Shown here in pieces: positions 34,777 through 60,950 of a stretch of 64,000 nt of DNA (the first letter of the stretch is position 1; the number at the start of each line of letters is the position of its first letter). The notes beneath the pieces are model-generated. The model had not been told where the DNA came from, did not search any database, and saw only the letters and a program-made list of their open reading frames with translations. Source of the stretch: a virus (Duplodnaviria; Heunggongvirae; Uroviricota; Caudoviricetes); IMG/VR virus record IMGVR_UViG_3300009826_000019, positions 43,941-107,940 of that record, one strand, 5' to 3'. The translations under genes and the position numbers were made by a program.

Positions 34777-35496
34777 ATGAATAATATTCAACAACAATTA
34801 CTAAAAGAGGTTAAGCGTGGTCAATCAGGTTACGGATTTCTATTTGAGAATGACGGATTTGTTGATCCTACTAACCAAAAACATATGTTAAATGAAGACA
34901 GAGATAGAAGTGAATGGTATATACCATTTCCTTATATTATCCACGCCGTCTTTCAAAAAGCGGATACCCCAAACGCCAACGGTAGAATATACCCAAGACC
35001 AATATTAGAAAGAGAACTTATAAAATATCAACTAAAAATCAGTGAAAGAAGGGCTTATGGTGAAAGTGACCACCCCGAATCAACCATTATATCCACAAAG
35101 GGTATTTCAATGAACATTATTAAATTATGGTGGGAAGGAAAAACTATTGTGGGTGATTTGGAAGTACCACTATCACATGGATTTGTGAAGAATGGTATTT
35201 GTAGCACTCCGGGAGATATTATTGCGAATAATATTTATTATAATAGGTTGAAACTTGGTGTTTCTTCGAGAGGTGTGGGTTCCGTGGAAGCAGGAAAAAA
35301 CAATATTAATGTTGTTGGAGACGATTTTGAACTTTTGTGTTGGGATTGGGTGACTGACCCTTCAACACCGGGTGCTTGGACAGCAAAAGATATGAGTGAT
35401 TTGAAACCTTATATTGAAAACACAGAAATCAAAACTTGTGAAAAGAAAATATTCATCATTGAAAAAGTTGATAAAGTATTACAAATTATAAAATAA
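34777..35496 (+). CDS. prohead core protease, T4 gp21-like
   Basis: Recalled T4 gp21 blocks: GRIYPRPILERE~KRLYPKRILEKA, GESDHP~GELNHP, IIKLWWEG~IIEDMWWKG, GVSSRGVGS~GVSSRGLGS, DPSTPGAWT~GPSAPDAWV. Confidence 0.8.
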   Translation: MNNIQQQLLKEVKRGQSGYGFLFENDGFVDPTNQKHMLNEDRDRSEWYIPFPYIIHAVFQKADTPNANGRIYPRPILERELIKYQLKISERRAYGESDHPESTIISTKGISMNIIKLWWEGKTIVGDLEVPLSHGFVKNGICSTPGDIIANNIYYNRLKLGVSSRGVGSVEAGKNNINVVGDDFELLCWDWVTDPSTPGAWTAKDMSDLKPYIENTEIKTCEKKIFIIEKVDKVLQIIK

Positions 35497-36665: not shown

Positions 36666-37499
36666 TTACCTCCCCACTTGTGGTAAATTAATCAAAGGTA
36701 CACCGGAACCACCACTATACATAGGGAGTTTTCCATCCCACTTTTCGATAGCGTATTGTTGAACGAGTAACATATTAAGTGATGCTGCAACAACCCTGTT
36801 GTAGTATGCTTCGCCGTCACCCTTAATTTTCAAGGCTTCCGCTTCACCACGCGCTTTAGTTACTTCGATTTCCGCTTGTGCTCTTGCACGAGCGACCTCA
36901 TTTTCCGCCCTCATCGCTTCCTGTACCATTCGGTTTCTTGAATCAATCGCCTCTACCAAACTTGCCGGTGGTGCAATCGCAGCCGTAAATTCAACAACCT
37001 GAAAACCTTGACTACCTAACGATTGTTCGAGCATTTCTCGGACTTGTGCCTCAAACTCACCACGCTTCGCCATTAATTCATCGGATGTGAAGAGGTTCCC
37101 AACAGTTCGATAAGCGTCAAACACACAGGTTAGAATAAATCCTTGTTCGATTTCCTTTATGGGTCTACGATATGTTAAAAACACATCAATCGCCTTATCG
37201 GGATTCAAACGGTACGCCAAGTTTGGTGTGATACGGAAAATTGCCGCATCCTTCGCATTAACGGTGATTTCACCATACGAAACTCGTTGTACGTACACCG
37301 GATACTGATGTACACTCTGTGTAAAGGGGTTAAACCACACAAAACCACGTACAGTTCCCATTACACCACCTTGTTTCTCTTCCGAAACACTCCACTTGTG
37401 GAATTTAATACCAACCGAGGTCGAATCGACCGTGGTACAACTTTGGGCGAACATCATAATCGCCACTAAACTCAAAATCCAAAAACTTCCTTTCTTCAT
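36666..37499 (-). CDS. SPFH/band-7 (stomatin/prohibitin/HflC-like) lipoprotein
   Basis: Signal with lipobox MFAQSC; SPFH core plus coiled-coil EAMRAENEVARARAQAEIEVTKARGEAEA. Confidence 0.75.
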   Translation of the reverse strand: MKKGSFWILSLVAIMMFAQSCTTVDSTSVGIKFHKWSVSEEKQGGVMGTVRGFVWFNPFTQSVHQYPVYVQRVSYGEITVNAKDAAIFRITPNLAYRLNPDKAIDVFLTYRRPIKEIEQGFILTCVFDAYRTVGNLFTSDELMAKRGEFEAQVREMLEQSLGSQGFQVVEFTAAIAPPASLVEAIDSRNRMVQEAMRAENEVARARAQAEIEVTKARGEAEALKIKGDGEAYYNRVVAASLNMLLVQQYAIEKWDGKLPMYSGGSGVPLINLPQVGR

Positions 37500-37563: not shown

Positions 37564-38562
37564 TTACTTAAAAACGTTACGATTTTCCCTAAAGAATTTC
37601 AATAACGTGGTTTCAGACCAACTAACCCTTTCGTCTGAACGAGAGGTTGGGGCAAACTTTTGTTCTATCGCGTCAATATACATTGTGTGAGAAAAATCAT
37701 CACCTTGATAATTTTCTTCCCAATATTTCGGCGGAATCTTGTTTTCCATATCCAACTGCTCAATAGAGAGGTTGTCGAAACTGATAACATTGGTGTAAGA
37801 TACAATTTTAATAATATTCCGATCCCATTCCACAATATTATTCTTAATATCCTCTGAATAAGATTTATAGTAATCTAATCCTCTACCAAACTCTTTATAA
37901 CCAAGCAATAGAAACTTTCGTAATCCGAAGCGGTCTCTTAACTGTGTTATAATTTCCGGTGTGTGTAGACCTATAATAAGGTGCGCAACTGTGTGTTCAT
38001 ACTTCAAAAAATACTCTTCGTCTGCTGAACACTTATCAATACCTTCTATTGGAATTGATACACCTAACCCATAAATCAATTTTTCTTCCATATAACGTTT
38101 CAATTCAACCGCATTACTTCCATGTAAGTGGTGAAAATTAACCGTCAAACTAGGGAATATCTTTTTTGTTTGACAGAATTGAAGAAGTAGTGGGAGGTCG
38201 GGATGTGATAATGGATTACCGCCGCCGACTGCCATTTCCTGTCCACCTGGTAACACATCCAAAACTTCTATCAACGCATTTATATCAGCGTGTTTTCCGT
38301 GAAAATGTGATTTTTCATGACAAAAAGCACAGGGTTTAAAATCACCCATACCATATTTAGATGGTATGCCCACACATTGGTTTGTGATTTTTATATCCAT
38401 ACTGTTCGGATAGTCAAACACAACAGGTTTGGTTTCGTCAAACTCCATTATTCGTGTACCATCTTCAAAAAGTTGGACTTTTACATTACCGTTTTGGTAG
38501 TTTATTATTTCTTTCATTGTGTTTTTTAAATTAACAATCATTTCCGAATTTTCCAAAAGCAA
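37564..38562 (-). CDS. radical SAM-like enzyme with non-canonical Cx14CxxC cluster motif
   Basis: NQC-VGIPSKYGMGDFKP-C-AF-C (C-x14-C-x2-C) followed by GGGNPLSHPDL, a GGEP-like SAM motif. Confidence 0.5.
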   Translation of the reverse strand: MLLENSEMIVNLKNTMKEIINYQNGNVKVQLFEDGTRIMEFDETKPVVFDYPNSMDIKITNQCVGIPSKYGMGDFKPCAFCHEKSHFHGKHADINALIEVLDVLPGGQEMAVGGGNPLSHPDLPLLLQFCQTKKIFPSLTVNFHHLHGSNAVELKRYMEEKLIYGLGVSIPIEGIDKCSADEEYFLKYEHTVAHLIIGLHTPEIITQLRDRFGLRKFLLLGYKEFGRGLDYYKSYSEDIKNNIVEWDRNIIKIVSYTNVISFDNLSIEQLDMENKIPPKYWEENYQGDDFSHTMYIDAIEQKFAPTSRSDERVSWSETTLLKFFRENRNVFK

Positions 38563-41109: not shown

Positions 41110-41490
41110 ATGGTACATACAATTATAATCGGTGTTTGGATGACATTGTTATTTATAACATTGTCTGTTGTTTTCGTATATATGTTTAAGAAACCAAAAC
41201 ATAATATAAACGAGGTTTTTGAACAAATATTTAAGAAACAAGTTGATTTGTTAAAAAAAATTGACGAAGAAAACACAATGCAAGTAGAGGTGTTTGATAA
41301 ACTTAACCATAATATTGTAGAGAATTATCGCATACTATTGCAAATACAAATAAAAGAATCTATTAAACACAACCCCTTTGAAACAGAACATATTCTAAAA
41401 TTATATAACGATTACATTGGTATTGCCAAATATCCGAACACAGTTTTAGATGATGCGGTTAATGAGTGGAGAAACCTATACGGTTATTAA
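41110..41490 (+). CDS. bitopic membrane protein
   Basis: Hydrophobic segment IIIGVWMTLLFITLSVVFVYMF. Confidence 0.5.
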   Translation: MVHTIIIGVWMTLLFITLSVVFVYMFKKPKHNINEVFEQIFKKQVDLLKKIDEENTMQVEVFDKLNHNIVENYRILLQIQIKESIKHNPFETEHILKLYNDYIGIAKYPNTVLDDAVNEWRNLYGY

Positions 41491-42086
41491 CAAATAAATT
41501 CCACCATACCACTATCCAAATAGAGATATGCGCCAACAATTTTTATATCACCATTTTTTTCCTTTTCACGTAAAAAACGATATTCCCGAATTGTATTTAC
41601 AGATTGTTGAACATTTGTTCGACACACCAAATCAAAGAAACCAGGATTAGACGATACGGTTTCACCACCATAAATAATATCCGCACTTGCTCGTACCGCC
41701 GGTAGTATTGGGCGAAGTTTTCCTAACAAACCCCAATCCTTTTCCTCTGTATCAATAACACGTTTGACAGCAGCACAATTATCATGTCCCAAAACCATTA
41801 CCAAATTCACGGAAGGAAAACTACAAGCAAATACCAAATCAAATAAAATTTCATTGGTAATAACATTCCCCGATGTGCGAATTGTAATAACATCACCCGC
41901 ACCCAATTTAAAAATATCTTCAACCACAATACGAGAATCTATACAAGTTACTATCACCGCTTTCGGTGTTTGTTCCTTAATACTATGGGGTTTGTCGTTA
42001 ACATATTCTTTGTTACGACATTTTAAAACTTCAAGTGTCGGGTGAGGCACTTCTTCTTTCTTTTTGAATTTAAAAAAATCTTCCAT
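41487..42086 (-). CDS. beta-class carbonic anhydrase
   Basis: CIDSR...GDVITIRTSGN...VLGHDNCAAV carries the Cys/His/Cys zinc-ligand pattern. Confidence 0.75.
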   Translation of the reverse strand: MEDFFKFKKKEEVPHPTLEVLKCRNKEYVNDKPHSIKEQTPKAVIVTCIDSRIVVEDIFKLGAGDVITIRTSGNVITNEILFDLVFACSFPSVNLVMVLGHDNCAAVKRVIDTEEKDWGLLGKLRPILPAVRASADIIYGGETVSSNPGFFDLVCRTNVQQSVNTIREYRFLREKEKNGDIKIVGAYLYLDSGMVEFIC

Positions 42087-45898: not shown

Positions 45899-46243
45899 TT
45901 AGGATTTTTCTAACATTTCGATTGCAGCACCGATATTGGGTGTGATATTTAATATAGTATCAAGTTGTGATATAAAAATCAGGCGTTCCACCGCTTCGTT
46001 CAATCCACTGAGGATAAATTTACCACCGGCGTTTTTACACAACCTGTGGGCAACAAGAATTGCACCTAAGCCGGAAGAGTCACAGTATTTGCACATTTCC
46101 AAGTTCAAAATAATGTTCTTCTCACCATTCCCTGATATTAAGACTAATTCGGATTTGAGTGTTGGTGCAATATGTGTGTCTAATTTTTGTTGTTGTACAC
46201 TGATAACGGTGTGTGTAACGTTTTGGTCAATTTTTAAGTTCAT
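45899..46243 (-). CDS. STAS-domain protein (anti-sigma-factor antagonist-like)
   Basis: 114 aa; LDTHIAPTLKSEL...LEMCKYCDSSGLGAIL...GGKFILSGLNEAVERL has SpoIIAA-like topology. Confidence 0.65.
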   Translation of the reverse strand: MNLKIDQNVTHTVISVQQQKLDTHIAPTLKSELVLISGNGEKNIILNLEMCKYCDSSGLGAILVAHRLCKNAGGKFILSGLNEAVERLIFISQLDTILNITPNIGAAIEMLEKS

Positions 46244-46898: not shown

Positions 46899-48599
46899 AT
46901 GTACAAAAATAATTATGCAACCATAGAAGAGAGTATAGGTAGGATGCAGAAACTTATGGGCAACACCGCGCCGGTGGTTCGCACGGAACAAGTGCTTGGA
47001 AACATTGAAAAGGTGTATAGGGGTCATGATAATAATGCTTATGCTATTGTAAAAGAAAATTCACACTACTATTTAAAAGTATCAGGAAAAACATCAGATT
47101 TGTCTTTGAACGATTTTGAATATTTGGGTGGAAACAGACAATGTAAAAATCTGTATGAATATAGTTCCTTTGCCAATGCAGAGAAGTTCCTTAAAGAACA
47201 TTTAATTACCTTGAACCAACAGGTTAACAACCAAGAATTACTTAAAGAAGAAGCAAAACGTGTTGATACCAACCTTGAAAAAACCGCTACTTCAACAGCA
47301 ATGCGCAGTGAAATAGACCGTATTCGTGAGATTATGGAAAACACCAATAGAATTAATAAAGGTGGTAGTGCAAGTGTTGTTAAGAAATCTCTAAACGAAA
47401 AAGTAAATATCGCTAACGAAGAGAGTGGTATGATTACCGATAGTGTGAACGAAGAACCCGTAAACGAAATTATTAGCAATGCTATTAAAAATGTTGCTAG
47501 TGGAATTGGTAATATGGGTGCCGGTGTTATTCACGGTCAAACAACAGAAGGAAGCGAAGAACCTGTGAATGAATTTGTCAGTAACGCCATAAAAAACGTT
47601 GCTAGTGGAATTGGTAATATGGGTGCCGGTGTTATTCACGGTCAAACAACAGAAGGAAGCGAAGACGACGAACTTGAACTCGAATTAGACGGTGATGACG
47701 AATTTGATTTAGACGACGAATTTGACAGCGAAGAAGAAAATGAATTTGAAGAAGATTTGGAAGACGAATTTGACGGTGAAGAAGACGAAGAAATGTCAAT
47801 GCTAAATGCTTTAATGGATAAGTTGAATAGTATTGAAGAAAAATTAGACGGTGCTGACAGCGAAGAAGGTGAATTTGAAATAGATTTAGACGACGATAGC
47901 GAAGGTGAATTTGATTTAGACGAATGTGGTGTAGTTGGTGAAGGTGACGATATTGAAGAAGCGTTTCTATCTGACAAACTCAACGCAAAATATGGTACAT
48001 TACCAAAACAAGCCGATGAAGCAAAAGCAAATTTTGAAAGAGTTATCACATCTTGGTTGGAAAGAGACCGACCTGGTATGAGTCCAACAGAATTAGCAAA
48101 CGCACTTAAAGCAAAAATAGACGAAATAGTTGCCGAAGAAGAATCAGACGATATTGATAACCCACTGTTTGATGACCCCGATGACAGAATGACGGGTACT
48201 ATGGGTGAAGCCAATATGAAAAGAATGGTTCAAAAAATTATTAAAGAAACTATTAGTACAATCGCTTCTGATGTAACAAAAGATAATTTTGGATATACTA
48301 ACGCCGAACCGGATAGTAAAGGTAGAACGAGTTTTGATAACCCAAAAGCCGAAAAAGAAATTGGTTTAGGTAATCACCACGAAGATACACTTGATCAAAT
48401 TAAATCAACAACAGGAAATCATTCTAAACCTTCAACAGGTAGTACACCAGCAGGTAAAGTTGCTAACGTTATTGACGATATAGAAGTTGAAATCGTTGAT
48501 TGTTGTGAGTCAAAAAACAAAAAACCTCTCTACATTGTAGAACAAGACGGAACAGTTATTGGTAAAATTGCACGTGAAACGTTGAAGAAGCGTAAATAA
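46899..48599 (+). CDS. highly acidic low-complexity protein (566 aa) with 37-aa tandem duplication; putative scaffold/internal head protein
   Basis: EEPVNE(I/F)(I/V)SNAIKNVASGIGNMGAGVIHGQTTEGSE x2; long D/E tracts; antisense ORFs rejected. Confidence 0.55.
   Translation: MYKNNYATIEESIGRMQKLMGNTAPVVRTEQVLGNIEKVYRGHDNNAYAIVKENSHYYLKVSGKTSDLSLNDFEYLGGNRQCKNLYEYSSFANAEKFLKEHLITLNQQVNNQELLKEEAKRVDTNLEKTATSTAMRSEIDRIREIMENTNRINKGGSASVVKKSLNEKVNIANEESGMITDSVNEEPVNEIISNAIKNVASGIGNMGAGVIHGQTTEGSEEPVNEFVSNAIKNVASGIGNMGAGVIHGQTTEGSEDDELELELDGDDEFDLDDEFDSEEENEFEEDLEDEFDGEEDEEMSMLNALMDKLNSIEEKLDGADSEEGEFEIDLDDDSEGEFDLDECGVVGEGDDIEEAFLSDKLNAKYGTLPKQADEAKANFERVITSWLERDRPGMSPTELANALKAKIDEIVAEEESDDIDNPLFDDPDDRMTGTMGEANMKRMVQKIIKETISTIASDVTKDNFGYTNAEPDSKGRTSFDNPKAEKEIGLGNHHEDTLDQIKSTTGNHSKPSTGSTPAGKVANVIDDIEVEIVDCCESKNKKPLYIVEQDGTVIGKIARETLKKRK
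47449..47660 (+). repeat. 111-bp tandem duplication (two units) within 46899..48599
   Basis: The 3' ~65 bp of each unit are identical; the 5' halves differ at synonymous or conservative sites. Confidence 0.85.
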
Positions 48600-48621: not shown

Positions 48622-49047
48622 ATGGATAGAAATATATATGAAGCATTTCTTGAAATTAAACAAGAAATGAAAGAAGAAATATTAGAGGTGTTGGTTCCAA
48701 CGATCCAACAGGTCGCCGATTCGGTTCACAACAGTAATGTTAAAACTTTGGAGGCAATAACTGCTGAAAATAAAACATTAAAACAAGAACTTGATGGTTT
48801 ACGCCGTGTTGTAATAACTAAAAATCACTTAGGAATAATATACACAATATTATTTATGTTATTATTCACTGTTGGATTTTTATTTATTTCAAACAGACAA
48901 TTGGAACAACGTGAATTAACGTTGGAAAAGGAGTTTAGAGAATTAATGGTTAAATTGATAGATTATCGAATATTAGTTAATGACAGAGGTATTTATATCC
49001 CCGAACACAGTCCCAACTCAACTCCCGACCCAAATCCAAGAAGATAA
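48622..49047 (+). CDS. bitopic membrane protein
   Basis: TM segment LGIIYTILFMLLFTVGFLFI. Confidence 0.5.
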   Translation: MDRNIYEAFLEIKQEMKEEILEVLVPTIQQVADSVHNSNVKTLEAITAENKTLKQELDGLRRVVITKNHLGIIYTILFMLLFTVGFLFISNRQLEQRELTLEKEFRELMVKLIDYRILVNDRGIYIPEHSPNSTPDPNPRR

Positions 49048-49054
49048 AATAGGA

Positions 49055-49252
49055 ATGGAAGAAGAGGTTTTGTGTAAGATTAATCAACTTATTATGGAGA
49101 AAACCGGTAAAAGCATTGAGGATTTAGAATATGCGCCATTACCGGAAGAGGATCATAGATACAACACACAGCGTTTTGGTAGAGCGGAAGATATTCTAAC
49201 ACCAAGACAAGCAAATGAAAAAATACAAAAATTTCTATCATTAAAATTTTAA
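49055..49252 (+). CDS. hypothetical small protein
   Basis: In-frame ATG of ORF 48980..49252 lying after the upstream stop. Confidence 0.4.
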   Translation: MEEEVLCKINQLIMEKTGKSIEDLEYAPLPEEDHRYNTQRFGRAEDILTPRQANEKIQKFLSLKF

Positions 49253-49259
49253 AAAGAAA

Positions 49260-49290
49260 AATCCCATTCAAACTCGAATGGGATTTTTTA
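49260..49290. terminator. bidirectional terminator
   Basis: Hairpin ATCCCATTCAAACTCGAATGGGAT followed by T6. Confidence 0.75.
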
Positions 49291-49394
49291 TTTGGGGTGG
49301 GGTTTTTCTCAGGAAATGAATTTTACGTTGTGCACTACGTACCCCACAAAGCTTCACTTGACACTACTACTGTCTCTTCGTAACTCTTCCCAAT

Positions 49395-51311
49395 TTAATT
49401 AACTTCTTCCGCTTCCTGTGGTCCACCGGCGGTTGCTTTACTGAAATCAAAATCACCAAATGGGTTGTCCGCACCCATATTAGCAAACGGATTGCTTGGG
49501 TTTCCACCACCAGGGTTATTTGCCGCATACAATCTTGTTGAAATCGGTATCCACACCTCATCCATTTTCTTTGCTAACTCATCCACCTTTTCGTGGTTTT
49601 CGGTTTTAATAACTTCCTTCAATTCGTCAATCACCGTTTGGATTTTTATTTTTTCCTCATCGGTAATTTTATCACCCATTTCGTCAATTTGTTTTTCGGT
49701 TGAGAAAATTATGGAGTCCGCCTTATTCATAGCTAAAACCTTTTCCATTTTTTTCTTATCCGCTTCGGCGTTATCTTCTGCTTCACGTTTCATTCTTTCA
49801 ACCTCTTCTGACGATAATCCTGATGAAGATTGAATGGTGATATGTTGTTCTTTGTTTGTCCCTTTATCAGTTGCTTTAACAGACATAATACCGTTGGCAT
49901 CAATACTAAATGTTACCTCTATTTGTGGTGTACCGCGCCTTGCCGGTGGAATACCATCTAAATCAAATTGACCTAATAGTTTATTATCATTGAAAGAGGG
50001 GCGTTCACCTTGGGCTACGCGAATGGTTACTGCCGGTTGGTTATCAACTGCTGTGCTGAAAATTTGTGATTTTGAAACAGGGATTGTTGTGTTCGCATCA
50101 ATAAGTTTTGTGAACACACTACCCATAGTTTCGATACCTAATGAAAGTGGTGTGACATCTAAAAGTAGAACGTCTTGTGTTTCACCACTTAACACAGACC
50201 CTTGAACTGCTGCTCCAAGGGCAACAACTTGGTCGGGATGTACACTTTTGTTTGGTTTTCTCCCAAAAAACTTCTCAACAGCCTCTTGTACAGCGGGAAT
50301 ACGAGTACTACCACCAACAAGAATTACTTCGTCAATATCACTTGTGGTTATACCTGCGCTTTTCAATGCTGATTTACAAGGTTCGATTGTGCGTTTAACG
50401 ATAGTTTCTATCATTTGTTCAAATTTCGCACGTGTAATCGTTTGCACGAGGTGTTTTGGTACACCGTCAACCGGCATAATGTATGGAAGATTTATTTCTG
50501 TTTGAACTGAACTTGACAACTCAATTTTCGCCTTCTCAGCGGCTTCTTTCAGGCGTTGTAATGCCATTGGGTCTTTTTTCAAATCAATGGCGTATTCCTT
50601 ATTAAATTCGTCAGCAAGATAATTTATAATGACATGGTCAATATCATCACCCCCCAACCTTGTATCGCCGTCAGTGGATTTGACTTCAAACACACCACCA
50701 CCGAGTTCAAGTATTGATATATCGAATGTACCCCCACCGAAGTCAAATACAGCAATTTTCATATCGTCTTTCTTATCTAAACCAAAAGCCAATGCTGCTG
50801 CCGTAGGTTCATTAATTATACGAGCGACTTCTAATCCGGCTATTTCACCCGCTTCTTTGGTTGCTTGACGCTGTGAATCGGAAAAATAAGCCGGTACAGT
50901 GATAACTGCTTTAACCACCTCTGTTCCAAGAAAATCTTCCGCTGTTTTCCGCATTTTTTGCAGGATTATTGCTGAAATTTCTTGTGGGGAATATTCTTTA
51001 TTTTCAATTTTAACACGAATAGTGTCATTAGTACCACTTACAAGTTCGTATGCAACTTTATCCTTTTCGTTGTTGATTGAACTATATTTTTCACCCATAA
51101 AACGCTTTATGGAATAAACCGTTTTTGTTGGATTAGTTACCGATTGGCGTTTCGCGGAATCTCCCACAACACGCTCACCGTCTTTTATAAAACCAACAAT
51201 TGAGGGGGTGGTGTCCTTCCCCTCACCGTTTGGAATAACCATTGGCTTACCACCTTCTACTACTGAAACACAAGAGTTACTTGTGCCTAAATCTATACCT
51301 ATTATTTTCAT
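49395..51311 (-). CDS. dnaK: Hsp70 chaperone DnaK
   Basis: [17 protein letters not shown]...; full-length 638 aa with canonical ATPase and substrate-binding regions. Confidence 0.9.
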
Positions 51312-51328
51312 ATTAAATATTTATTTTT

Positions 51329-51796
51329 TCAATTTATATCAATTTTTCTAATTGTGGGTTGTTCGGTAGAACTCCACATTTTATCTATAACAATCTCCAA
51401 AATACCATCCACAATATGTGAAGTAGTAGTATCTAAATCACAATCTTTTGGAATGGTAAATGTTTCTTTACCGGGTTTTGTGTTGAAATGAAAACCATTA
51501 TCACGTGGTTTATACTCCACAGTTAGAGTATAATCTTGTAATGTGATTTCAATATCATTTTTTGATAATCCTGGAACCAACAATTCAATCGAATGAGTGT
51601 GTGCATCACTCTCGATATGACAGTTTGATCTACCTATACCGTATGATACAGTATAACTTGGTGGCGCAATTATGTCTTGCGCACGTGGGAGAATACCCCA
51701 CCATGGGCTTGTATCCTCACTTGGTAAAAAATCACCCACATGAAATCTATATGGATAATTACCTGTACCTGTTCTTATGTTACAACAACTTTTCAT
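51329..51796 (-). CDS. small heat-shock protein (Hsp20/alpha-crystallin family)
   Basis: 155 aa; ACD-like LLVPGLSKNDIEITLQDYTLTVE...GILEIVIDK. Confidence 0.75.
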   Translation of the reverse strand: MKSCCNIRTGTGNYPYRFHVGDFLPSEDTSPWWGILPRAQDIIAPPSYTVSYGIGRSNCHIESDAHTHSIELLVPGLSKNDIEITLQDYTLTVEYKPRDNGFHFNTKPGKETFTIPKDCDLDTTTSHIVDGILEIVIDKMWSSTEQPTIRKIDIN

Positions 51797-51908
51797 ATTA
51801 TATAATTATTATTATTATTTATTTTTACATTTACCACTATTCAAAGAGTGTGCCAAAGGATTTTTGTCACAAAAAAAGATGTTTTTTGTGACAAAATATG
51901 ACAGATTG

Positions 51909-52160
51909 TCATACTTGTCCTTCATCTACTGACACCTTTGCAGTATTGAACCGGCGTGAAATACGACCTCTTGTCAGATCGTATGGCGACATTTCTATTT
52001 CGACTTTATCACCAACTAAAATTTTAACGTAGTTTTTGCGTATTTTACCTGATATTACACACAGCACCATGTGTTCGTTTTCCAACTCAACGCGAAAGGT
52101 GGCGTTACCCAACGCTTCTGTAACTATACCTGTTTGGATTATAAGATTCTTTTTACCCAT
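51909..52160 (-). CDS. infA: translation initiation factor IF-1
   Basis: [57 protein letters not shown] nearly collinear with bacterial IF-1 as recalled. Confidence 0.85.
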
Positions 52161-52521
52161 TTTCTTTTTTTATAAATTGTTTTAAATATTTCATTTCGAT
52201 ATGTTTCTTAATAATATCCCCATGACATGACTTCGGCGCACAAAAACAACCAAGACATATGTTTTCACCACGTATATACATATCATATATTTCGTCTATT
52301 TTCTCTCTAAATGTGGGGTTATTTTCATAGTTTTCAAGAAAATATTCTTGGTATTTTGCAATTGCGGTTTCTCTATCTGATACCGTGTATTGCGCTAACG
52401 TTCCTGTTTTGGTACTATATGGATTACCCAATATGTTATTTTCTCTGTTTCTACCTATGTAGAAATACACACCATCGTTTGGGGTGTGTTTATTAATGTT
52501 TATTACTTCTATACTTCCCAC
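52153..52521 (-). CDS. DUF4326-family protein
   Basis: [15 protein letters not shown] ... [15 protein letters not shown] signature. Confidence 0.55.
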
Positions 52522-52709
52522 TATCTTATTACCATTACTGATTTTTCACCGATACCATTTTCTTCTTTGTGGTCTATATAATGACACACAACTTCTTCTG
52601 TAATAGATTCAATGTGGTCAAAACCCGTACCACTACAATTAACAATAAGAACTTCCATTGTTTTAGGAAGACCTTCCAACGCATTTTCTATATCAAGTAC
52701 TGTTAACAT
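52521..52709 (-). CDS. hypothetical protein
   Basis: ORF track. Confidence 0.4.
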   Translation of the reverse strand: MLTVLDIENALEGLPKTMEVLIVNCSGTGFDHIESITEEVVCHYIDHKEENGIGEKSVMVIR

Positions 52710-52750
52710 ATCAATTATTTTGTTTCAAATATACAAAAAATAACAAAAAT

Positions 52751-53758
52751 TTACAAGTATGTTGCTGTTTGAAGTAGTTTAATTACACCATCAATACCTC
52801 TTTCTCTATACAGGTCGGAAACGTCTTTACATTTCTCCGGCAGCGTTAATTTAGACCAATCTACTATGCGTATCCGCCCACACAATCTACCTACGTTCAA
52901 CGTTTCATAAATCTTTATCCAATCCTCATACGCTTTTTCTTCATAGTCGGGTATTAACAAAACACTGTTTGCTCTTTCCAACAATACGTTGAATAATCGG
53001 AAGTCGGAGTTTAATTTCTTTCCTAATATTGGAATAGCATTTGAAGGTAATGGAATAGCGTCTAAAACACCTTCGACTAATCTAACTTCACCGTCAAATT
53101 GTGTTTTATTGTATCCCCATATTATTTCACGTTTATCGTGATCTGATGGTAGAACAAATTTTGTTTGATATTTGTTTTCCTTATACAGACGACCAACAAA
53201 ATAATCTATGCTACCGAATGACCAATTAGTAAAGATTATTCGATTACGAATACTTTTTGTGTATTTACAACCGGTTGTGCATTTGTTACAAACATTTGTT
53301 GTGCAATGTATGTTATTTTTTTCGATTTCATAATCAACCAAACCACGATCAATCAAATAATTGTATGCGTCTTTATGTTCGGGTCGAAGTTTGTTTAATG
53401 GAACACAGCACTTGGGTAGTTTAAAGATGGGTTTTTCAAAACACTCTTCGTCAAAATGTAATAGGTACAAACGACTTTCCCTGATATTCTTAATCTCATC
53501 GAAATATTCTTTGTATATTCGTTCATTGCCGAATTGTTTGATTAAATAGGATAATCTACCTGATTGTTCGGGGCAACACCAAGAGTTGTATATACCTTTG
53601 GGAAAATTTACTTCCAAATTACCTTTACCCACACCCCCACAGTAGGGACAATCGTACTGCGACTGTCCATTTTCACTAACACCACGTTTAGTGCTACCTA
53701 AAAAGGATTCAAATATTCTTTCTAATTTGTTGTACATCAATCCATTTTTTGTGAACAC
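52751..53758 (-). CDS. DNA primase, T4 gp61-like (zinc finger + TOPRIM)
   Basis: CPYCGG zinc finger; blocks LPKCCVPLNKL, VRLVEGVLDAIPL and KDVSDLYRERG recall gp61. Confidence 0.7.
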   Translation of the reverse strand: MFTKNGLMYNKLERIFESFLGSTKRGVSENGQSQYDCPYCGGVGKGNLEVNFPKGIYNSWCCPEQSGRLSYLIKQFGNERIYKEYFDEIKNIRESRLYLLHFDEECFEKPIFKLPKCCVPLNKLRPEHKDAYNYLIDRGLVDYEIEKNNIHCTTNVCNKCTTGCKYTKSIRNRIIFTNWSFGSIDYFVGRLYKENKYQTKFVLPSDHDKREIIWGYNKTQFDGEVRLVEGVLDAIPLPSNAIPILGKKLNSDFRLFNVLLERANSVLLIPDYEEKAYEDWIKIYETLNVGRLCGRIRIVDWSKLTLPEKCKDVSDLYRERGIDGVIKLLQTATYL

Positions 53759-54036
53759 CTTTTACAATGCCCATATTCTTTTGCACAATCAATACACAAA
53801 TCATCGGTGTAGGTGCTTTCAAAATATAATTTTTTACCACAACAATCACAAGGTTTTGTTGTCATCGAAGCACCACCTATTTTAGAGGATACATATTTAC
53901 AATACTTACATAGACAATGTTCTCTACGTTCTTTTTTTTCTGTATCGTTGGTGTAATCTTCGATTGTTTTTTTATAACCGTCTATAACACGTTTATTTCG
54001 TGCTTTACTATCCAACGCTCTTGTTTTACTAACCAT
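53737..54036 (-). CDS. zinc-ribbon protein
   Basis: HCLCKYCKY...CDCCGKK...CIDCAKEYGHCKRC. Confidence 0.45.
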   Translation of the reverse strand: MVSKTRALDSKARNKRVIDGYKKTIEDYTNDTEKKERREHCLCKYCKYVSSKIGGASMTTKPCDCCGKKLYFESTYTDDLCIDCAKEYGHCKRCSQKMD

Positions 54037-54040
54037 ATAA

Positions 54041-54805
54041 TTACACTATATTTTGAATATTCCACTTCCTCGCTGACTTACAAAACTTTTTATATTCAGG
54101 ATATTCGTTATAAGAATGTTTCCAATACCATTCTCTGAACATATGTGGTGGGTGGTTGTTTGATAAGTCATAATAAATATCACACATACTAACGGTTACT
54201 TTACCTATTTTACAATCACCACCAATTCGGTTTTTAACCCATTTAACATCATCATGAAAAAGGTCGTGTTTATCACAAAAACACCTTACCATATTATCGC
54301 ACCACTCCTCATATTGTTCAACGGTGTTTCTAATTCTAGTATTCAACCACGTTTTTCTGTCCTCTACTTCGTCATCGTAATCTTCGAGAGAGGAAATCAT
54401 TTCCCTTTTTTCCTCATTGTAGAAATCCACATCAAACCTCAATTCATCTTCGGTATATATTAGGTCTTCCTCATATCTAGTGTCATTTGTTCTCAGGATA
54501 ACATATTTATTCTTAACAGCACCGTTGATTTCATACAGTGAAGTTGTGAAATTTGTTTCAGAATATATGTTCTCATATTCATAGATATAAGGGGCGTTGT
54601 TGTTTATTGGTGAGGATTTATCAACCAATTTCGCCTTATATAAATACATAGGGCAACCAACACCATCACACATTGCATATCTGTTTAATAATGTTAATGT
54701 ACCGTCATCGTTACCATAAATTTTACTTACACCCACCCTAGTTGTGGTAATTGCTATCAATTTTATTCCATTCATATTATTATATTTTTTTAATAAACCA
54801 ATCAT
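54041..54805 (-). CDS. hypothetical protein (254 aa)
   Basis: ORF track. Confidence 0.5.
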   Translation of the reverse strand: MIGLLKKYNNMNGIKLIAITTTRVGVSKIYGNDDGTLTLLNRYAMCDGVGCPMYLYKAKLVDKSSPINNNAPYIYEYENIYSETNFTTSLYEINGAVKNKYVILRTNDTRYEEDLIYTEDELRFDVDFYNEEKREMISSLEDYDDEVEDRKTWLNTRIRNTVEQYEEWCDNMVRCFCDKHDLFHDDVKWVKNRIGGDCKIGKVTVSMCDIYYDLSNNHPPHMFREWYWKHSYNEYPEYKKFCKSARKWNIQNIV

Positions 54806-54816
54806 ATCATTTTTTA

Positions 54817-55647
54817 CTAATTTAACCTTTCTTCTCTAAATTCACAAATATCCAACAAACAAAAGTCTATGTTATTTACCCTCGTTGTTTGTGTTGCATG
54901 AAAATGCCCATAATACCATTTTGATAATATTTTCTGATTATCTTTAATTTTATAGAAATTATTATCCATTGTTTTACGCTCTGTATCCACATCATATTTC
55001 AATTGCATATCCACCATTATCCAACTTTGGATACCGCTCTTTGTATATGGATAAACAAATGACGGTGCAGTATGTGATGCAATAATATCAATGTTATTCG
55101 GGAATTTTTTATTGATTTCATCTATCTTTGATTCATTATATATGGGCATTTCACCTTCCCAATAATATTTTCTACCGGGTTTTTCACGTTCCCACCTCCA
55201 ACGTTCAGTTCTATCAACACTCAATCCACCACCAATACATAATATATTTTTAGAAATGGTAAAGATTGGGGGTGCAAAATATAAAGAGTTGTCATCTTGT
55301 GGAAGTTCTCTTGTGTAAAATATTTCAATAACAGTGTAATCAGATACTAAATGAATGTTGGAATATGATTTGGAATATACGCCGTCAAAATATTTTGGGT
55401 CATCGTGATTTCCTCGAACTACAACAAGGTGATTCTTTTTCTTTTTTAGTTTGCTGTTGAGTTTCTTCAACTCCACTTTATTGTGTTCTTCGGAATGAAA
55501 ACCAATACCAAAATCACCAAGTTGAATGATTACATAGTTTTCCAATTGGTATTGTACACTTGCTTTGTGTGCAAGGGTACTCCATTGTCCGTGAACATCG
55601 CCAACAAAGGTTAATCCATTGGCATCATTAAATTTTATTGTATTCAT
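54817..55647 (-). CDS. metallophosphatase (PPP/ApaH-like)
   Basis: GDVHGQ ... GDFGIG ... RGNHD motifs. Confidence 0.65.
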   Translation of the reverse strand: MNTIKFNDANGLTFVGDVHGQWSTLAHKASVQYQLENYVIIQLGDFGIGFHSEEHNKVELKKLNSKLKKKKNHLVVVRGNHDDPKYFDGVYSKSYSNIHLVSDYTVIEIFYTRELPQDDNSLYFAPPIFTISKNILCIGGGLSVDRTERWRWEREKPGRKYYWEGEMPIYNESKIDEINKKFPNNIDIIASHTAPSFVYPYTKSGIQSWIMVDMQLKYDVDTERKTMDNNFYKIKDNQKILSKWYYGHFHATQTTRVNNIDFCLLDICEFREERLN

Positions 55648-55648
55648 T

Positions 55649-55975
55649 TTATCCGTTACTTAATGTTCTAACTCTTTTATTACCACCCATTTCAACAACT
55701 TTAATACCACTTGGATCAACAAATGGTTGTTGTTCAACCATCGGTTCAACAACAGGTGGAACAACTTCTTTTTCTAAAACTACATCATTTTTCGGAACTT
55801 CCAAAACGGAGGGTGTTACCTCTTTTGGTTTTACAAACGCCGGTTCTTCACCATACACATAGGATACGTGCACCTTTTCTATTAGTTCGTTAATATATTC
55901 ATTAACGTCTAAATCATTCGCAGCACAATATTCTTCAATAGATTTAATCAATCTTTTCTTAAAAACAAATTTCAT
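55649..55975 (-). CDS. hypothetical protein
   Basis: ORF track. Confidence 0.45.
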   Translation of the reverse strand: MKFVFKKRLIKSIEEYCAANDLDVNEYINELIEKVHVSYVYGEEPAFVKPKEVTPSVLEVPKNDVVLEKEVVPPVVEPMVEQQPFVDPSGIKVVEMGGNKRVRTLSNG

Positions 55976-57802: not shown

Positions 57803-57855
57803 ATCATTTTTTCTATAAATATACAGTATTTTAAAATAACATTGAATTATATGTG

Positions 57856-57936
57856 AGCGGATAGTGGGACTCGAACCCACACGCCTTTCGGCACTAGTTC
57901 CTAAGACTAGCGCGTATACCATTCCGCCATATCCGC
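57856..57936 (-). tRNA. tRNA-Leu (TAG), class II
   Basis: Acceptor GCGGATA/TATCCGC; anticodon arm CTAGT-CTTAGGA-ACTAG; long variable arm GCC-GAAA-GGC; T-arm GTGGG-TTCGAGT-CCCAC. Confidence 0.8.
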
Positions 57937-58002
57937 ATATTATCACAAATATTTGCACTGTTATCATAGGTATTGATAATAGTGCAATTTTATTTGATAA
58001 TG

Positions 58003-58075
58003 TATGAGTGGAGGGATTCGAACCCCCGATTTCGTGGTCCCAAACCACGCGCCATACCAACTTGACCACACCCAT
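58003..58075 (-). tRNA. tRNA-Pro (TGG)
   Basis: Anticodon arm CGTGG-TTTGGGA-CCACG; acceptor ATGGGTG/CACTCAT with one G-U. Confidence 0.7.
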
Positions 58076-58082
58076 GTTGTTG

Positions 58083-58154
58083 ATGTTCCACCAGGACTTG
58101 AACCTGGACAAACAGATTCAAAATCTGTTGTGCTAACCATTACACAATGGAACA
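58083..58154 (-). tRNA. tRNA-Gln (TTG)
   Basis: Acceptor TGTTCCA/TGGAACA; anticodon arm ACAGA-TTTTGAA-TCTGT; T-arm CCAGG-TTCAAGT-CCTGG. Confidence 0.75.
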
Positions 58155-58160
58155 ATGTAG

Positions 58161-58233
58161 CTGGGATAGTAGGTCACGATCCTACGACCTGCGGATTAAC
58201 AGTCCGATGCTCTACCAACTGAGCTATATCCCA
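58161..58233 (-). tRNA. tRNA-Asn (GTT)
   Basis: Anticodon loop CTGTTAA; T-arm GTAGG-ATCGTGA-CCTAC has an unusual A54/T58; acceptor TGGGATA/TATCCCA. Confidence 0.6.
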
Positions 58234-58240
58234 ATTTTGC

Positions 58241-58311
58241 GGTCGATGTGGGATTCGAACCCCTCCTCTACCGTGACAGGGTAACGTGCTAACCATTACA
58301 CTACACCGACC
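58241..58311 (-). tRNA. tRNA-Asp (GTC), possibly non-canonical T-stem
   Basis: Anticodon arm TTACC-CTGTCAC-GGTAG; acceptor GGTCGGT/ATCGACC; T-stem has two mismatches. Confidence 0.5.
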
Positions 58312-58317
58312 ATTTTG

Positions 58318-58393
58318 GGTGAGAGAGGAGAATCGAACCCCCGACCTTCTGATCCACAATCAGACGCTCTAACCTACCTGAGCTACCCTCACC
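58318..58393 (-). tRNA. tRNA-His (GTG) with encoded G-1
   Basis: Extra 5' G pairs with discriminator C73; anticodon arm TCTGA-TTGTGGA-TCAGA. Confidence 0.75.
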
Positions 58394-58401
58394 ATATATT
58401 G

Positions 58402-58474
58402 TAGTCGGTACGGGACTCGAACCCGTTTCTCCACCTTGAAAGGGTGGTGTCCTGACCAATTAGACGAACCGACC
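58402..58474 (-). tRNA. tRNA-Glu (TTC)
   Basis: Anticodon arm CCACC-CTTTCAA-GGTGG; T-arm ACGGG-TTCGAGT-CCCGT. Confidence 0.8.
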
Positions 58475-58483
58475 ATATTTTTG

Positions 58484-58568
58484 TGGAAAGGGTAGGATTC
58501 GAACCTACGAAAGTCCGAAGACAGCGGAGTTACAGTCCGCCCCAATTGACCAACTATGGGACCTTTCC
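58484..58568 (-). tRNA. tRNA-Tyr (GTA), class II
   Basis: Acceptor GGAAAGG/CCTTTCC; anticodon arm GCGGA-CTGTAAC-TCCGC; variable arm GTC-TTCG-GAC; T-arm GTAGG-TTCGAAT-CCTAC. Confidence 0.75.
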
Positions 58569-58569
58569 A

Positions 58570-58609
58570 AACATTTTATCCAAAATAATATTCACATATT
58601 ATTCCGATC
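58570..58609 (-). promoter_or_regulatory. PeSL-like promoter element inside the tRNA cluster (minus strand)
   Basis: Minus strand reads AAGATCGGAATAATATGTGAATATTATTTTGGATAAAATG just upstream of tRNA-Tyr. Confidence 0.5.
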
Positions 58610-58614
58610 TTATG

Positions 58615-58687
<73 letters not shown>

Positions 58688-58970: not shown

Positions 58971-60950
58971 TTAATTAACCAAAATTTTTTCACTATTTTC
59001 TAAATATTCATCAATTCGTACTATTAAACGTTCAAATTCTTCATTTATTACAGGAGAACCTGTTAAAGTTGGTTTATTTTGTACTACAATATTTTCTGTG
59101 ATAATTTTTTCTTTGTTATGTTTTTTATTTTCCATTGGTGCTGCTTCTGCTGCCCCAGCCTCTGCGCCACCCACATCGGGTGCACCACCTTCGGCAGGTG
59201 CTTCGCCACCACCTTCTTCTGCGCCGCCGCCCATATCATCCATACCCATATCGCCACCTGGTGCACCTCCACCGCCGCCACCGGCAGCCGCTTCTGCTTG
59301 TCCTATTTCAGTAGCACCATAATTATATTCTGCATTTGCTTCACCATATAATGTATCAACTCTATCAAAAAGACCTGTTTTCTTAATAATTTGTTGTGTT
59401 AATACTAATTCGGTTGCCAATGCTTTTTCAAGTCGAAGGTCTTCCAATATCTGATTAATTTCGCTTTCAGGGAATTTCATAATTTCCCTTAACGCTTTTC
59501 TCCACGAATATACTGCTAATCCACCACCCGGATCTGAAAGAGCATCTTTACAAACAAGAATCTTCTTCTGCATTTCTTCAATACGTTGAATTTCTGCTTG
59601 TGTTGAAGGATTGTTCATTGTTATTGTAAAGTTATTCAGTTCGTCTGTAAAACCTAACAAATAAAGATGTATGATAGCAATTTTATTTAGTTCAAGAATA
59701 ACACATTGTTGAATACGTGTAATTATTTTGGCAAATCTTACGTCAGTCATTGATAGTGTTCTACCTTCGGCTGGTGATGCTTCAAAATTTAAAAATACCT
59801 TTGGAATACCCAAGGCGGTGAGCATTTGCAAATGAAGATATTCTAAAATATCTTTAAATTTTTCAAATGCTGAACTACCACTTAACGCCTCGATTTTACT
59901 TGCGTCATTGTTACCTCTAACCGGGATAAAATAATCGTCTAAGGGTGACATTACGTTTTTAGATAAGTCAATATGACCTGTTTGTGGGTCAATTCGGGAA
60001 GTTCTTTTAAATCTGTTTGCTATTTCTTGTACGTATGGTTCAATGTCAGCATCGTCAATTAATCCAACGTCTATTTTGTATATTAATCTATCGTATGCTC
60101 TCTCCATCATATGTATTAACATATGATCTTCCGCCATCATTAATCTTCGCCATTGTTGTCTTGCACCATTAATATATGAACAACCATAGGGGGCGGCAAT
60201 CATATCATTCATTAGTCTGAAATGTCCCACTTGCCAACTATGAAATGTTTGTGGTGCACCTGCGCCAATATATTGAAAATGTGGTTGAAGTTGTGATACG
60301 TCATTGTTGGATACACTACCAGCGTTTTGTGGCATAACACCGTAGGGGTGTAAACTTTGAAATCTTCTCATTTCGACCACAGGTACGGAGTGCCACGCCA
60401 ATATACCGTTTTTAGATTGAATGTTTAACAGTTTATATTCGTTACCATATTTTACCATAGTACGGACTAGGGGTAATAGTTCCAAATGTATTTGAAGTCT
60501 ATTAACGAAAAGGTCTTCTAAAATAAACTTAATTCTATCTGATTTTGAGGTGATATTAATTAGTGAACCGTCAGGTCCTAAAGTACATGTTTCTGATGCT
60601 ACCAAATTTAAAGCCTGATATATTTCAGGTCTTTGGCACATATTTTCAATATCACGATACATTAAGTCAACATAACCCATTGACTGTAAATCACGCATAT
60701 TAGTACGTGCTTGGGTATGTATCCACGTTGAACTTAACCATTTGTCTTGTTTACCTTGAAGTAGTGCCGCATCATATTCCGCTTTATTCTTTGTTTTAAG
60801 AATAATATCGTTATTGTAATCATAGGTGCTCGGGTGAGATGACTGAACAGTGGTGTTGTACTGCCCTTTATCCCACCCTGTTAAAGTTTTTATCAGTGCG
60901 CTATATATACTTATAGGTTTTTCTTGTTTCTTATCCATTATCGAATACAT
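58971..60950 (-). CDS. portal protein, T4 gp20-like, with Gly/Ala/Glu-rich C-terminal extension
   Basis: 659 aa; LDDYFIPVRGNNDASKIEALSG region resembles gp20 [22 protein letters not shown] as recalled; late motif immediately upstream. Confidence 0.6.
   Translation of the reverse strand: MYSIMDKKQEKPISIYSALIKTLTGWDKGQYNTTVQSSHPSTYDYNNDIILKTKNKAEYDAALLQGKQDKWLSSTWIHTQARTNMRDLQSMGYVDLMYRDIENMCQRPEIYQALNLVASETCTLGPDGSLINITSKSDRIKFILEDLFVNRLQIHLELLPLVRTMVKYGNEYKLLNIQSKNGILAWHSVPVVEMRRFQSLHPYGVMPQNAGSVSNNDVSQLQPHFQYIGAGAPQTFHSWQVGHFRLMNDMIAAPYGCSYINGARQQWRRLMMAEDHMLIHMMERAYDRLIYKIDVGLIDDADIEPYVQEIANRFKRTSRIDPQTGHIDLSKNVMSPLDDYFIPVRGNNDASKIEALSGSSAFEKFKDILEYLHLQMLTALGIPKVFLNFEASPAEGRTLSMTDVRFAKIITRIQQCVILELNKIAIIHLYLLGFTDELNNFTITMNNPSTQAEIQRIEEMQKKILVCKDALSDPGGGLAVYSWRKALREIMKFPESEINQILEDLRLEKALATELVLTQQIIKKTGLFDRVDTLYGEANAEYNYGATEIGQAEAAAGGGGGGAPGGDMGMDDMGGGAEEGGGEAPAEGGAPDVGGAEAGAAEAAPMENKKHNKEKIITENIVVQNKPTLTGSPVINEEFERLIVRIDEYLENSEKILVN

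Follow-up and report, generated by a model that had tools for sequence, protein, structure and literature searches.

A conserved DUF4326-IF-1-Hsp20-DnaK block with a putative sigma-54 control region in a jumbo phage that probably infects Bacteroidota

What does a tailed phage gain from carrying an Hsp70 chaperone, a small heat-shock protein (sHsp) and a translation initiation factor next to one another, and under whose control would it express them? The question is raised by a stretch of 64,000 nucleotides (nt) from a virus of the Caudoviricetes (positions 43,941 to 107,940 of IMG/VR record IMGVR_UViG_3300009826_000019), hereafter the window. On its minus strand, genes for a DUF4326 protein, the initiation factor IF-1, the sHsp Hsp20 and the Hsp70 protein DnaK follow one another. 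An earlier note, made by a model from the sequence of the window, described the last three as one chaperone and translation module of a kind rare in tailed phages. Taken as a plain gene inventory, the region is ordinary for a jumbo phage, and its interest lies mainly in a regulatory prediction. Parts of the translation and folding machinery are known from huge phages, and this region is a conserved, compact case. Our explanation, which we hold as a whole to be about 60% probable, is that the window belongs to a Bacteroidota jumbo phage with two accessory units kept over a long time, DUF4326 with IF-1, and Hsp20 with DnaK under a promoter of host type.

Two units conserved in order across phage lineages

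The genes for DnaK, Hsp20 and IF-1 lie head-to-tail where the note had placed them (Table 1), and the IF-1 peptide that it quoted is present. None of the three is truncated or interrupted by an internal stop, and DnaK is full-length, as the note had stated. Hsp20 and DnaK are separated by 17 nt, IF-1 and Hsp20 by 112 nt, and the DUF4326 gene overlaps the start of IF-1 by 8 nt. The bidirectional terminator noted at 49260 could likewise be recognized: a palindromic 14-bp stem with A/T runs lies between dnaK and a convergent plus-strand open reading frame (ORF; 48980-49252), and ends both the Hsp20-DnaK unit and the convergent genes. A G+C-containing hairpin followed by a T run occupies the same place after dnaK in two relatives, L064 and L073.

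The relatives carrying the block came solely from look-ups of exact proteins, and they extend the order DUF4326 - IF-1 - Hsp20 - DnaK to two further phage lineages. In the first, seen in three samples (L064, L069, L070 and L071), the genes run orf335 - orf87 - DUF4326 - orf100 - IF-1 - Hsp20 - DUF723 - DnaK, followed by a convergent homologue of orf566; the L064 proteins are 75% (DnaK), 69% (IF-1), 58% (DUF4326) and 34-41% (Hsp20) identical to those of the window. In the second, L073, the order is DUF4326 - IF-1 - Hsp20 - DnaK - DUF723. The DUF723 gene (approximately 340-370 amino acids (aa)), absent from the window, is possibly a mobile or homing-type element; it lies between Hsp20 and DnaK in L064 (8913-9935) and after DnaK in L073 (5179-6285), and the chaperone unit tolerates insertions.

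Do the genes form a single module? Three short contigs are informative here. One (L248) reads Nudix gene - Hsp20 - DnaK, without IF-1; another (L249) has DUF4326 - IF-1, again with an 8-nt overlap, followed by unrelated genes; and the third (L250) holds IF-1 in yet another context. Because L248 and L249 show each part separately, we regard the block as two units, DUF4326 with IF-1 and Hsp20 with DnaK, and the single module of the earlier note is inaccurate, all the more as Hsp20-DnaK has a promoter-like element of its own. DUF4326 lies directly upstream of IF-1 in L073 as well as in L249, and one gene away in L064. Among the 63 IMG/VR loci holding DnaK relatives, none has DnaK, Hsp20 and IF-1 together.

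A jumbo phage related to contigs from termite guts

The window bears the hallmarks of a tailed phage, with a T4-like portal, a T4-type prohead protease and 11 tRNA genes, together with many small ORFs without database matches. Its exact DnaK, IF-1 and Hsp20 proteins are recorded on one contig of 367,985 bp, well above the 200 kb that, with hallmark genes, define a jumbo or huge phage. No close relative of the window was found in the phage collection or in IMG/VR, and the nearest portals of the phage collection, those of Microcystis phage Mel-JY01 and Flavobacterium phage immuto, are just 33-34% identical. L071 comes from a gut compartment of the higher termite Labiotermes labralis (IMG 3300010369), and L001, a contig discussed below, from one of the higher termite Embiratermes neotenicus (IMG 3300009784) (PMC7800795). 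We assign the window to a jumbo phage that is about 368 kb long, has T4-like head genes and has relatives in higher-termite gut metagenomes. The host of this phage is probably a member of Bacteroidota.

The gene order from the portal to beyond dnaK is the same in three independent assemblies (ENA, Logan and JGI) made from different samples. G+C content at third codon positions (GC3) in the three block genes is 0.30, 0.21 and 0.35, against 0.25-0.40 in other genes of the window, which is phage-like and bears out the statement that base composition matches the surroundings. The note had used this composition to argue that the block is not an assembly chimera with host DNA. Independent assemblies and synteny conserved in diverged relatives exclude a chimera more strongly than composition does.

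Complete proteins from distinct phage clades

DnaK is a full-length Hsp70. It covers positions 1-598 of the 599 in PF00012 (E=3e-245) and exceeds two NCBI equivalog cut-offs (NF001413, 947.5 bits for a cut-off of 648; TIGR02350, 915.8 for 822.55). The nucleotide-binding domain, conserved linker, substrate-binding domain, helical lid and a C-terminal tail ending in AEEVN are all present, residues 2-585 align to solved chains of Escherichia coli DnaK, and the ATP-binding and catalytic motifs (IGIDLGT and others) are kept along with the linker. So are the residues that contact J-domains, which we take to be R167, N170 and T173 of E. coli. Bacteroidota DnaK has 340 columns with a conservation of at least 95%, and 244 of them are kept throughout the five phages with the module; at 14 positions nearly invariant in Bacteroidota the phage proteins carry clade-specific replacements. 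The ratio of nonsynonymous to synonymous substitution rates (dN/dS, Nei-Gojobori) between DnaK and its relatives is 0.07-0.10, a rough value, as are those of the other block genes, for dS is near or at saturation in these comparisons.

The closest cellular DnaKs all belong to Bacteroidota, at 64-70% identity; one of them (P0011) sits in a bacterial context, beside gldB and gldC. Neighbour-joining with 171 sequences unites the module-phage DnaKs in one clade (100% bootstrap), which groups with the DnaK of L001 in 82% of replicates. The sampled Bacteroidota DnaKs are monophyletic in 90% of replicates and the phage DnaKs fall outside them; the deeper branches are short and unresolved. The phage DnaK is an old phage lineage and was not picked up recently. 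L001, a 360-kb termite-gut contig sister to the lineage of the window, has a different arrangement: Hsp20 (4520-4933), DnaK (9995-11941) and a type-I DnaJ (12871-13977) lie within 10 kb, and IF-1 is not nearby.

IF-1 is equally well supported, with 81.7 bits for PF01176 and 100.9 for TIGR00008 (equivalog cut-off 61.15), 58% identity to E. coli IF1 and matches to solved IF-1 structures at E=1e-23. An alignment of 18 phage and cellular IF-1s has 27 invariant columns, and all are kept, including R70 (R69 in E. coli), H30 and R41. Cellular IF-1 has 72 aa, whereas the protein of the window bears an additional C-terminal tail of about 11 aa. Its nearest relatives (69-76% identity) form a phage clade of 80-85 aa proteins that have in common the charged tail and several substitutions; two of its members sit in the same DUF4326 - IF-1 - Hsp20 - DnaK module. 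Cellular matches, among them Saprospiraceae, Chitinophagales and Bacteroidales, are 65-68% identical at best, and one of 78 aa (L072) lies in a ribosomal-protein operon, as expected of a cellular gene. The only pair with unsaturated dS, formed by two relatives, gives a dN/dS of about 0.07. We rejected the tail as a general trait of phage IF-1s: it is absent in Lak phages, LR756511, LR756508 and MT835508 (a fecal 'Bacteriophage sp.'), and Bacteroides phage SJC03 has an N-terminal extension instead. Since these other phage IF-1s lack the tail, phages probably captured IF-1 more than once.

The earlier note had asked whether the proteins are host-like or form a phage clade: DnaK and IF-1 each form their own phage clade beside Bacteroidota, at 65-70% identity. 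PHROG families already exist for both (phrog_22485 for the DnaK of the window and phrog_30201 for its IF-1).

Hsp20 is a member of its family (44.4 bits for PF00011, gathering score 20.8), with a region of about 60 aa preceding the alpha-crystallin domain (residues 61-155). In the PDB it comes closest to the alpha-crystallin domains of plant Hsp25.3 and Hsp21 (E=2.5e-4). The protein is highly divergent: just five among 1.84 billion cluster representatives came up at E<=1e-10 in an exhaustive search, and tblastn found no match in the phage collection. Nevertheless, the Hsp20s of four lineages keep the alpha-crystallin domain, the motif GIL-x-[IV], an N-terminal NPWWGI and a C-terminal I-x-I, the last residues being KIDIN in the window, RIEIN in L064 and KIEIK in both L073 and L248. 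For DUF4326, a member of the rhodanese-phosphatase superfamily, dN/dS is 0.13-0.29.

A putative control region of host type before Hsp20-DnaK

Canonical sigma-54 promoters carry GG at -24 and GC at -12, 10 nt apart (TGGCAC-N5-TTGC), require an enhancer-binding activator and give transcripts that start about 12 nt after the -12 element. The spacer between IF-1 and Hsp20 contains an element resembling these (Table 1), and in four lineages the spacer has TGGC-N6-TTTG(A/T)A some 40-48 nt ahead of the Hsp20 start. The same kind of element turned out to be a near-constant feature of Bacteroidota dnaK genes: TGGC[AG][CT]-N5-TTG occurs upstream of 73 of 79 cellular Bacteroidota dnaK genes (background 0.003 per 200 nt), 46-126 nt and mostly 55-100 nt before the start codon. 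It spans Flavobacteriales, Sphingobacteriales (Mucilaginibacter), Bacteroidales and other Bacteroidota (loci L078-L157).

A second component accompanies it. In 51 of these 73 regions, a palindrome TG[ACT]CA-N3-TG[TG]CA is found 25 or about 66 nt upstream of the -24 element; with a background of 0.0018 per 80 nt, this is an enrichment of about 400-fold. A palindrome of the same class precedes the -24 element in L064, L073, L248, L001, L002 and L014, and the only window site for the strict form, TG[AC]CA-N3-TGTCA, is the palindrome at the end of IF-1 (Table 1). In Bacteroidota, the palindrome may be the binding site for the regulator of the heat-shock regulon. A highly conserved control region upstream of dnaK across Bacteroidota is a by-product of this comparison.

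We built a weight matrix from 67 distinct sites upstream of Bacteroidota dnaK genes and scanned both strands of the whole window. The top site was the element before Hsp20, with 18.2 bits, and the next scored 9.0. The elements before Hsp20 reach 20.6 bits in L064, 15.8 in L248 and 21.1 in L001, and matrix sites are also present 52-71 nt before dnaK in LR756502 (17.8), LR756501 (13.4) and several huge-phage contigs of IMG/VR.

This agrees with what is known of the cellular genes. In Flavobacterium psychrophilum, mapped transcription starts show that a sigma-54 -24/-12 motif drives groES-groEL, lon, dnaK, grpE-dnaJ, htpG and clpB (PMC9723704), and predicted sigma-54 sites are enriched before GroEL, IbpA, GroES, GrpE, DnaJ and DnaK in Bacteroidota (PMC12316311). 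It therefore seems that the Hsp20-DnaK unit has a host heat-shock control region, and since its cis elements are the same as those before cellular Bacteroidota dnaK, it is probably transcribed by the sigma-54 RNA polymerase of the host.

The RNA of the 112-nt spacer folds into two hairpins, with a z-score of -3.8 against shuffled sequences. One corresponds to the inverted repeat between the palindrome and the -24 element, which may be the terminator of the upstream operon or an operator; its arm TGTCACAAAAA is not enriched in the window. A generic sigma-70 promoter scan was uninformative (35 sites for 37 expected), a loose version of the sigma-54 pattern is not enriched window-wide (19 sites for 13 expected), and Rfam reports no RNA thermometer or other family in 49000-52700. 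Neither an activator nor an rpoN gene was found among the scanned proteins of the window.

Comparison with other phages and with the cellular network

The claim that DnaK together with IF-1 is rare in tailed phages was overstated. Lak megaphages (bioRxiv 10.1101/356790) and huge phages sampled in many ecosystems (PMC7162821) have been described with IF-1, which in Jug phages is even a core gene (PMC12880540). Moraphages, large aquatic phages with predicted Bacteroidota hosts, encode DnaK, DnaJ and HSP20 (PMC12619734), other jumbo phages reportedly encode Hsp20 and J-domain proteins (PMC7824862), and our own searches recovered DnaK from Lak and from the 480-735 kb phages (LR7565xx genomes), at 48-66% identity. 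As both proteins were already published in huge phages, their presence in one huge-phage genome is unsurprising. What stands of the earlier reading is a block that is phage-borne, full-length and no chimera; its rarity and its unity as a single module do not.

Moraphages resemble the phage of the window in their size, their predicted hosts and their DnaK and Hsp20. They come from freshwater and marine sites, however, whereas the relatives of the window come from termite guts; they encode DnaJ, and no DnaJ adjoins dnaK in the window; IF-1, which the phage of the window encodes, goes unmentioned in their description (PMC12619734). Their DnaKs are related to those of Flavobacteriales, seven of eight nesting inside Flavobacteriaceae (PMC12619734), in contrast to the clade outside the sampled Bacteroidota described here. 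Lak, 480-735 kb and Jug phages share with the window IF-1, tRNAs and chaperones, and in LR756502 and LR756501 the promoter-like element seen before Hsp20-DnaK stands directly before dnaK. None of these phages shows the order DUF4326 - IF-1 - Hsp20 - DnaK, though: IF-1 and DnaK are about 37 kb apart in Lak-A1, dnaK is followed by dnaJ in Lak-A2, unlike in the window, and the IF-1 of Lak and huge phages has 72 aa and no C-terminal tail.

Other phages encode folding helpers for use during infection in a different manner. Hsp20 in cyanophages and Atu_ph07, J-domain proteins in jumbo phages and RB43, and a jumbo-phage Hsp10 co-chaperonin subunit (PMC7824862, PMC12619734) are co-chaperones or holdases that recruit the Hsp70 or chaperonin of the host, whereas the phage of the window supplies the Hsp70 itself. 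The cellular sHsp-Hsp70 network (IbpA/B, DnaK-DnaJ-GrpE and ClpB in E. coli) has the same two protein families; here, though, the genes are viral, sHsp and DnaK are joined in one unit, 17 nt apart, the sHsp is extremely divergent, and DnaJ, GrpE and ClpB are not seen near DnaK. With cellular Bacteroidota dnaK genes, which in flavobacteria belong to a sigma-54 regulon for protein quality control (PMC9723704, PMC12316311), the unit has in common the -24/-12-type element and the palindrome upstream of it. To the published cases the window adds a termite-gut lineage, the conserved order of the four genes, a DnaK paired with an sHsp and not with DnaJ, a phage-specific clade of tailed IF-1s and a putative sigma-54 control region of host type.

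How the two units may work

The first unit closes a leftward operon about 4 kb in length, in which the translation of DUF4326 and then of IF-1 is probably coupled through the overlap of the two genes. IF-1, whose S1/OB-fold is intact, would occupy the A site of the 30S subunit and supplement or replace host IF-1 on phage mRNAs. The second unit consists of Hsp20 and DnaK and ends at the bidirectional terminator. If the two act like their cellular counterparts, proteins that are unfolding or not assembled would be held by the sHsp, then refolded or released by DnaK with the help of a J-protein and GrpE, which either the host or another part of the phage genome would provide; the pair may in this way support a very large output of virion and other phage protein. 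The use of host DnaJ and GrpE is plausible, given that the J-domain contact residues and 244 of the 340 conserved columns are kept. As for expression, the sequence suggests that host sigma-54 polymerase and a stress-activated activator would transcribe the second unit within the protein-quality-control regulon of the host, switching it on once infection brings proteotoxic stress. That the phage supplements host proteostasis and translation initiation is plausible and fits purifying selection.

How did the phage come by this arrangement? Huge phages of Bacteroidota may have captured a sigma-54 control region from their hosts along with the chaperones, which would make these genes stress-induced members of the host regulon, and the termite-gut lineage would have fixed such a unit beside DUF4326-IF-1, so that both together form a single conserved cassette that makes and folds phage protein. 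This scenario is tentative, and we give it slightly less than even odds. We came across no publication that describes viral genes as part of a host sigma-54 stress regulon. If the scenario is true, phages use the host's own stress sensor to time their chaperone supply, and the promoter and palindrome would be useful as a marker predicting Bacteroidota hosts.

Several observations weigh against the explanation as a whole. Genes for DnaJ, GrpE and ClpB were not found in the window (tblastn with E. coli DnaJ and GrpE); in L064 the 10 kb on either side of dnaK lack all three as well, and tblastn with DnaJ and GrpE was empty at the L073 locus too, so that the phage DnaK would rely on partners not seen nearby. 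This bears on the gene neighbourhood and not on membership in the DnaK family. Elsewhere, in L001, Lak-A2 and L011, a full type-I dnaJ adjoins dnaK. (A scan of metagenome contigs with a profile of phage DnaJs gave no contig of suitable size for a dnaJ of this phage among the matches listed, and is uninformative.) The dN/dS of Hsp20, 0.47-0.68 with saturated dS, is high and points to a weaker constraint on this gene. As IF-1 and Hsp20-DnaK are not always adjacent (L248, L249, L250), their juxtaposition may lack functional meaning. The termite-gut habitat is that of relatives, and the Bacteroidota host of the window's own phage is a probable one. With regard to the promoter, the element before Hsp20 in L073 scores poorly in the matrix, and 14 of 200 random windows (7%) reach at least 18.2 bits somewhere; because the score alone is weak, the case for a promoter rests on position, strand, conservation across lineages and the palindrome. 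The -12 part, moreover, reads TTGA or TTGT, not the canonical TTGC; the spacing is correct and position -12 is A, a deviation that is the rule upstream of the 73 Bacteroidota dnaK genes.

Could the block serve another end? One possibility, which we consider unlikely, is counter-defence or takeover: the three phage proteins DnaK, sHsp and IF-1 would stand in for, or shield, those host factors which defence systems monitor or attack (through chaperone-guarding sensors or translation-blocking toxins, for instance), and DUF4326 would remove modifications or signals derived from ADP-ribose. For DUF4326, the predicted role in virus-host conflicts is the processing of ADP-ribose-derived phosphates (PMC9503650, PMC7824862), and its gene is tightly linked to IF-1, with the same overlap in the window and in L249; this link, however, is positional only. 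The moraphage study proposes counter-defence for phage chaperones, citing DnaJ-dependent bNACHT25 sensing (PMC12619734), and the 14 replacements at nearly invariant positions of DnaK could be read in the same sense, but with the residues of working enzymes retained and equivalog cut-offs exceeded, DnaK and IF-1 do not look like decoys. None of the eight block proteins matches a PADLOC model, in a library that covers defence and not anti-defence. Less likely still is a role of DnaK in phage DNA replication or replisome remodelling, comparable to that of host DnaK-DnaJ-GrpE for phage lambda, in place of bulk folding. The block does follow conserved, possibly replication-related genes, among which orf335 has an N-terminal Cys cluster and the motifs EG-x-x-D and D-x-E-E, recalling zinc-ribbon/Toprim primases on a reading of the alignment. 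Yet orf335 has no match in Pfam, PHROGs or NCBIfam, a profile of three orthologues finds nothing in the PDB even at E=10, and its single-sequence structure model is unusable (predicted local distance difference test score, pLDDT, 34.5). The convergent neighbours in relatives are tail-fibre genes, and the pairing of DnaK with an sHsp behind a heat-shock-type promoter points to proteostasis.

The genes might also be recent passengers from a host, without function in the phage. That the closest cellular relatives all belong to Bacteroidota, and that a promoter of host type came along, would suit such an origin. It is nonetheless very improbable: identity to any cellular protein is just 65-70%, the proteins form phage-only clades with phage-like GC3, and lineages with DnaKs 25-30% apart still have the same gene order, at a dN/dS of about 0.07-0.10. 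For a chimera with host DNA, or a window that is not from a phage, we found no supporting point, and give it next to no weight. The same gene order recurs in assemblies of different samples, the portal, prohead protease and tRNA cluster are on the same contig, and the bacterial genes lie in quite different contexts, infA in a ribosomal-protein operon (L072) and dnaK beside gldB and gldC (L076).

Neighbouring genes and other features of the window

The features discussed above and other genes of the window are collected in Table 1. The leftward run upstream of DUF4326 was delimited from the ORF list and from the gene calls of an identical contig, L066.

Table 1. Positions of the block, its control elements and other features in the window
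Feature	Positions	Strand	Evidence or remark
dnaK, 638 aa	49395-51311	-	PF00012, NF001413, TIGR02350
Small heat-shock protein Hsp20/alpha-crystallin, 155 aa	51329-51796	-	PF00011
infA-like IF-1, 83 aa	51909-52160	-	PF01176, TIGR00008
DUF4326 protein (rhodanese-phosphatase superfamily)	52153-52521	-	PF14216, E=7e-14
Palindromic bidirectional intrinsic terminator	49257-49288		14-bp stem AAAAATCCCATTCGAGTTTGAATGGGATTTTT, A/T runs on both sides
Sigma-54-type -24/-12 promoter-like element	51834-51858	-	core TGGCAC-N5-TTGA (51855-51840), about 44 nt before Hsp20 ATG
Second inverted repeat TTGTCACAAAAAACATCTTTTTTTGTGACAA	51864-51894		between palindrome and -24 element; folds as 14-bp hairpin
Palindrome TGACAATCTGTCA	51899-51911		overlaps IF-1 stop codon; candidate activator or repressor site
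Upstream leftward run (orf62, orf335, orf99, orf254, metallophosphoesterase, orf108)	52521-55975	-	ORF list and L066 gene calls
orf335, Cys-rich, conserved	52751-53758	-	73% (L064) and 62% identical in two relatives
Metallophosphoesterase	54817-55647	-	PF00149
orf566, convergent neighbour	46899-48599	+	47% identical in L064; no family match
T4-like portal	58971-60950		PF07230, 2e-55
T4-type prohead protease	34777-35496		PF03420
tRNA genes (11)	57855-58687 (nine); 1145-1219; 28501-28575	-; +; +	
STAS-domain protein, anti-sigma-antagonist type	45899-46243	-	
Histidine kinase, soluble, 254 aa	43063-43827	+	HisKA and HATPase_c
Beta-carbonic anhydrase	41487-42086	-	
Radical-SAM/Fe-S oxidoreductase	37564-38562	-	phrog_16999
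SPFH/Band-7 protein	36666-37499	-	unusually high GC (0.445)
HNH endonuclease	32726-33772	-	
Protein with GmrSD N-terminal domain	19114-19680	+	

Within the upstream run, orf254 is 36% identical to a protein of L064. The convergent orf566, whose homologues adjoin tail-fibre genes in relatives, contains two tandem units of 38 aa (EEPVNE..SNAIKNVASGIGNMGAGVIHGQTTEGSE, approximately 47445-47673), then a long stretch rich in Asp and Glu. The nine-tRNA cluster beside the portal gene comprises Leu, Pro, Gln, Asn, Asp, His, Glu, Tyr and Thr, and no suppressor tRNA is present among the 11 of the window.

The first part of the window (1-28000) has a strong positive GC skew (0.18-0.37). Nearly all of its ORFs are small (about 120-250 aa) and lie on the plus strand, and family matches are rare among them; it resembles an extended run of uncharacterized genes that share one direction of transcription. 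Finally, the genes for the histidine kinase, the STAS protein and the beta-carbonic anhydrase lie a few kb from the chaperone block; the first two could be a phage-encoded signalling or partner-switching pair.

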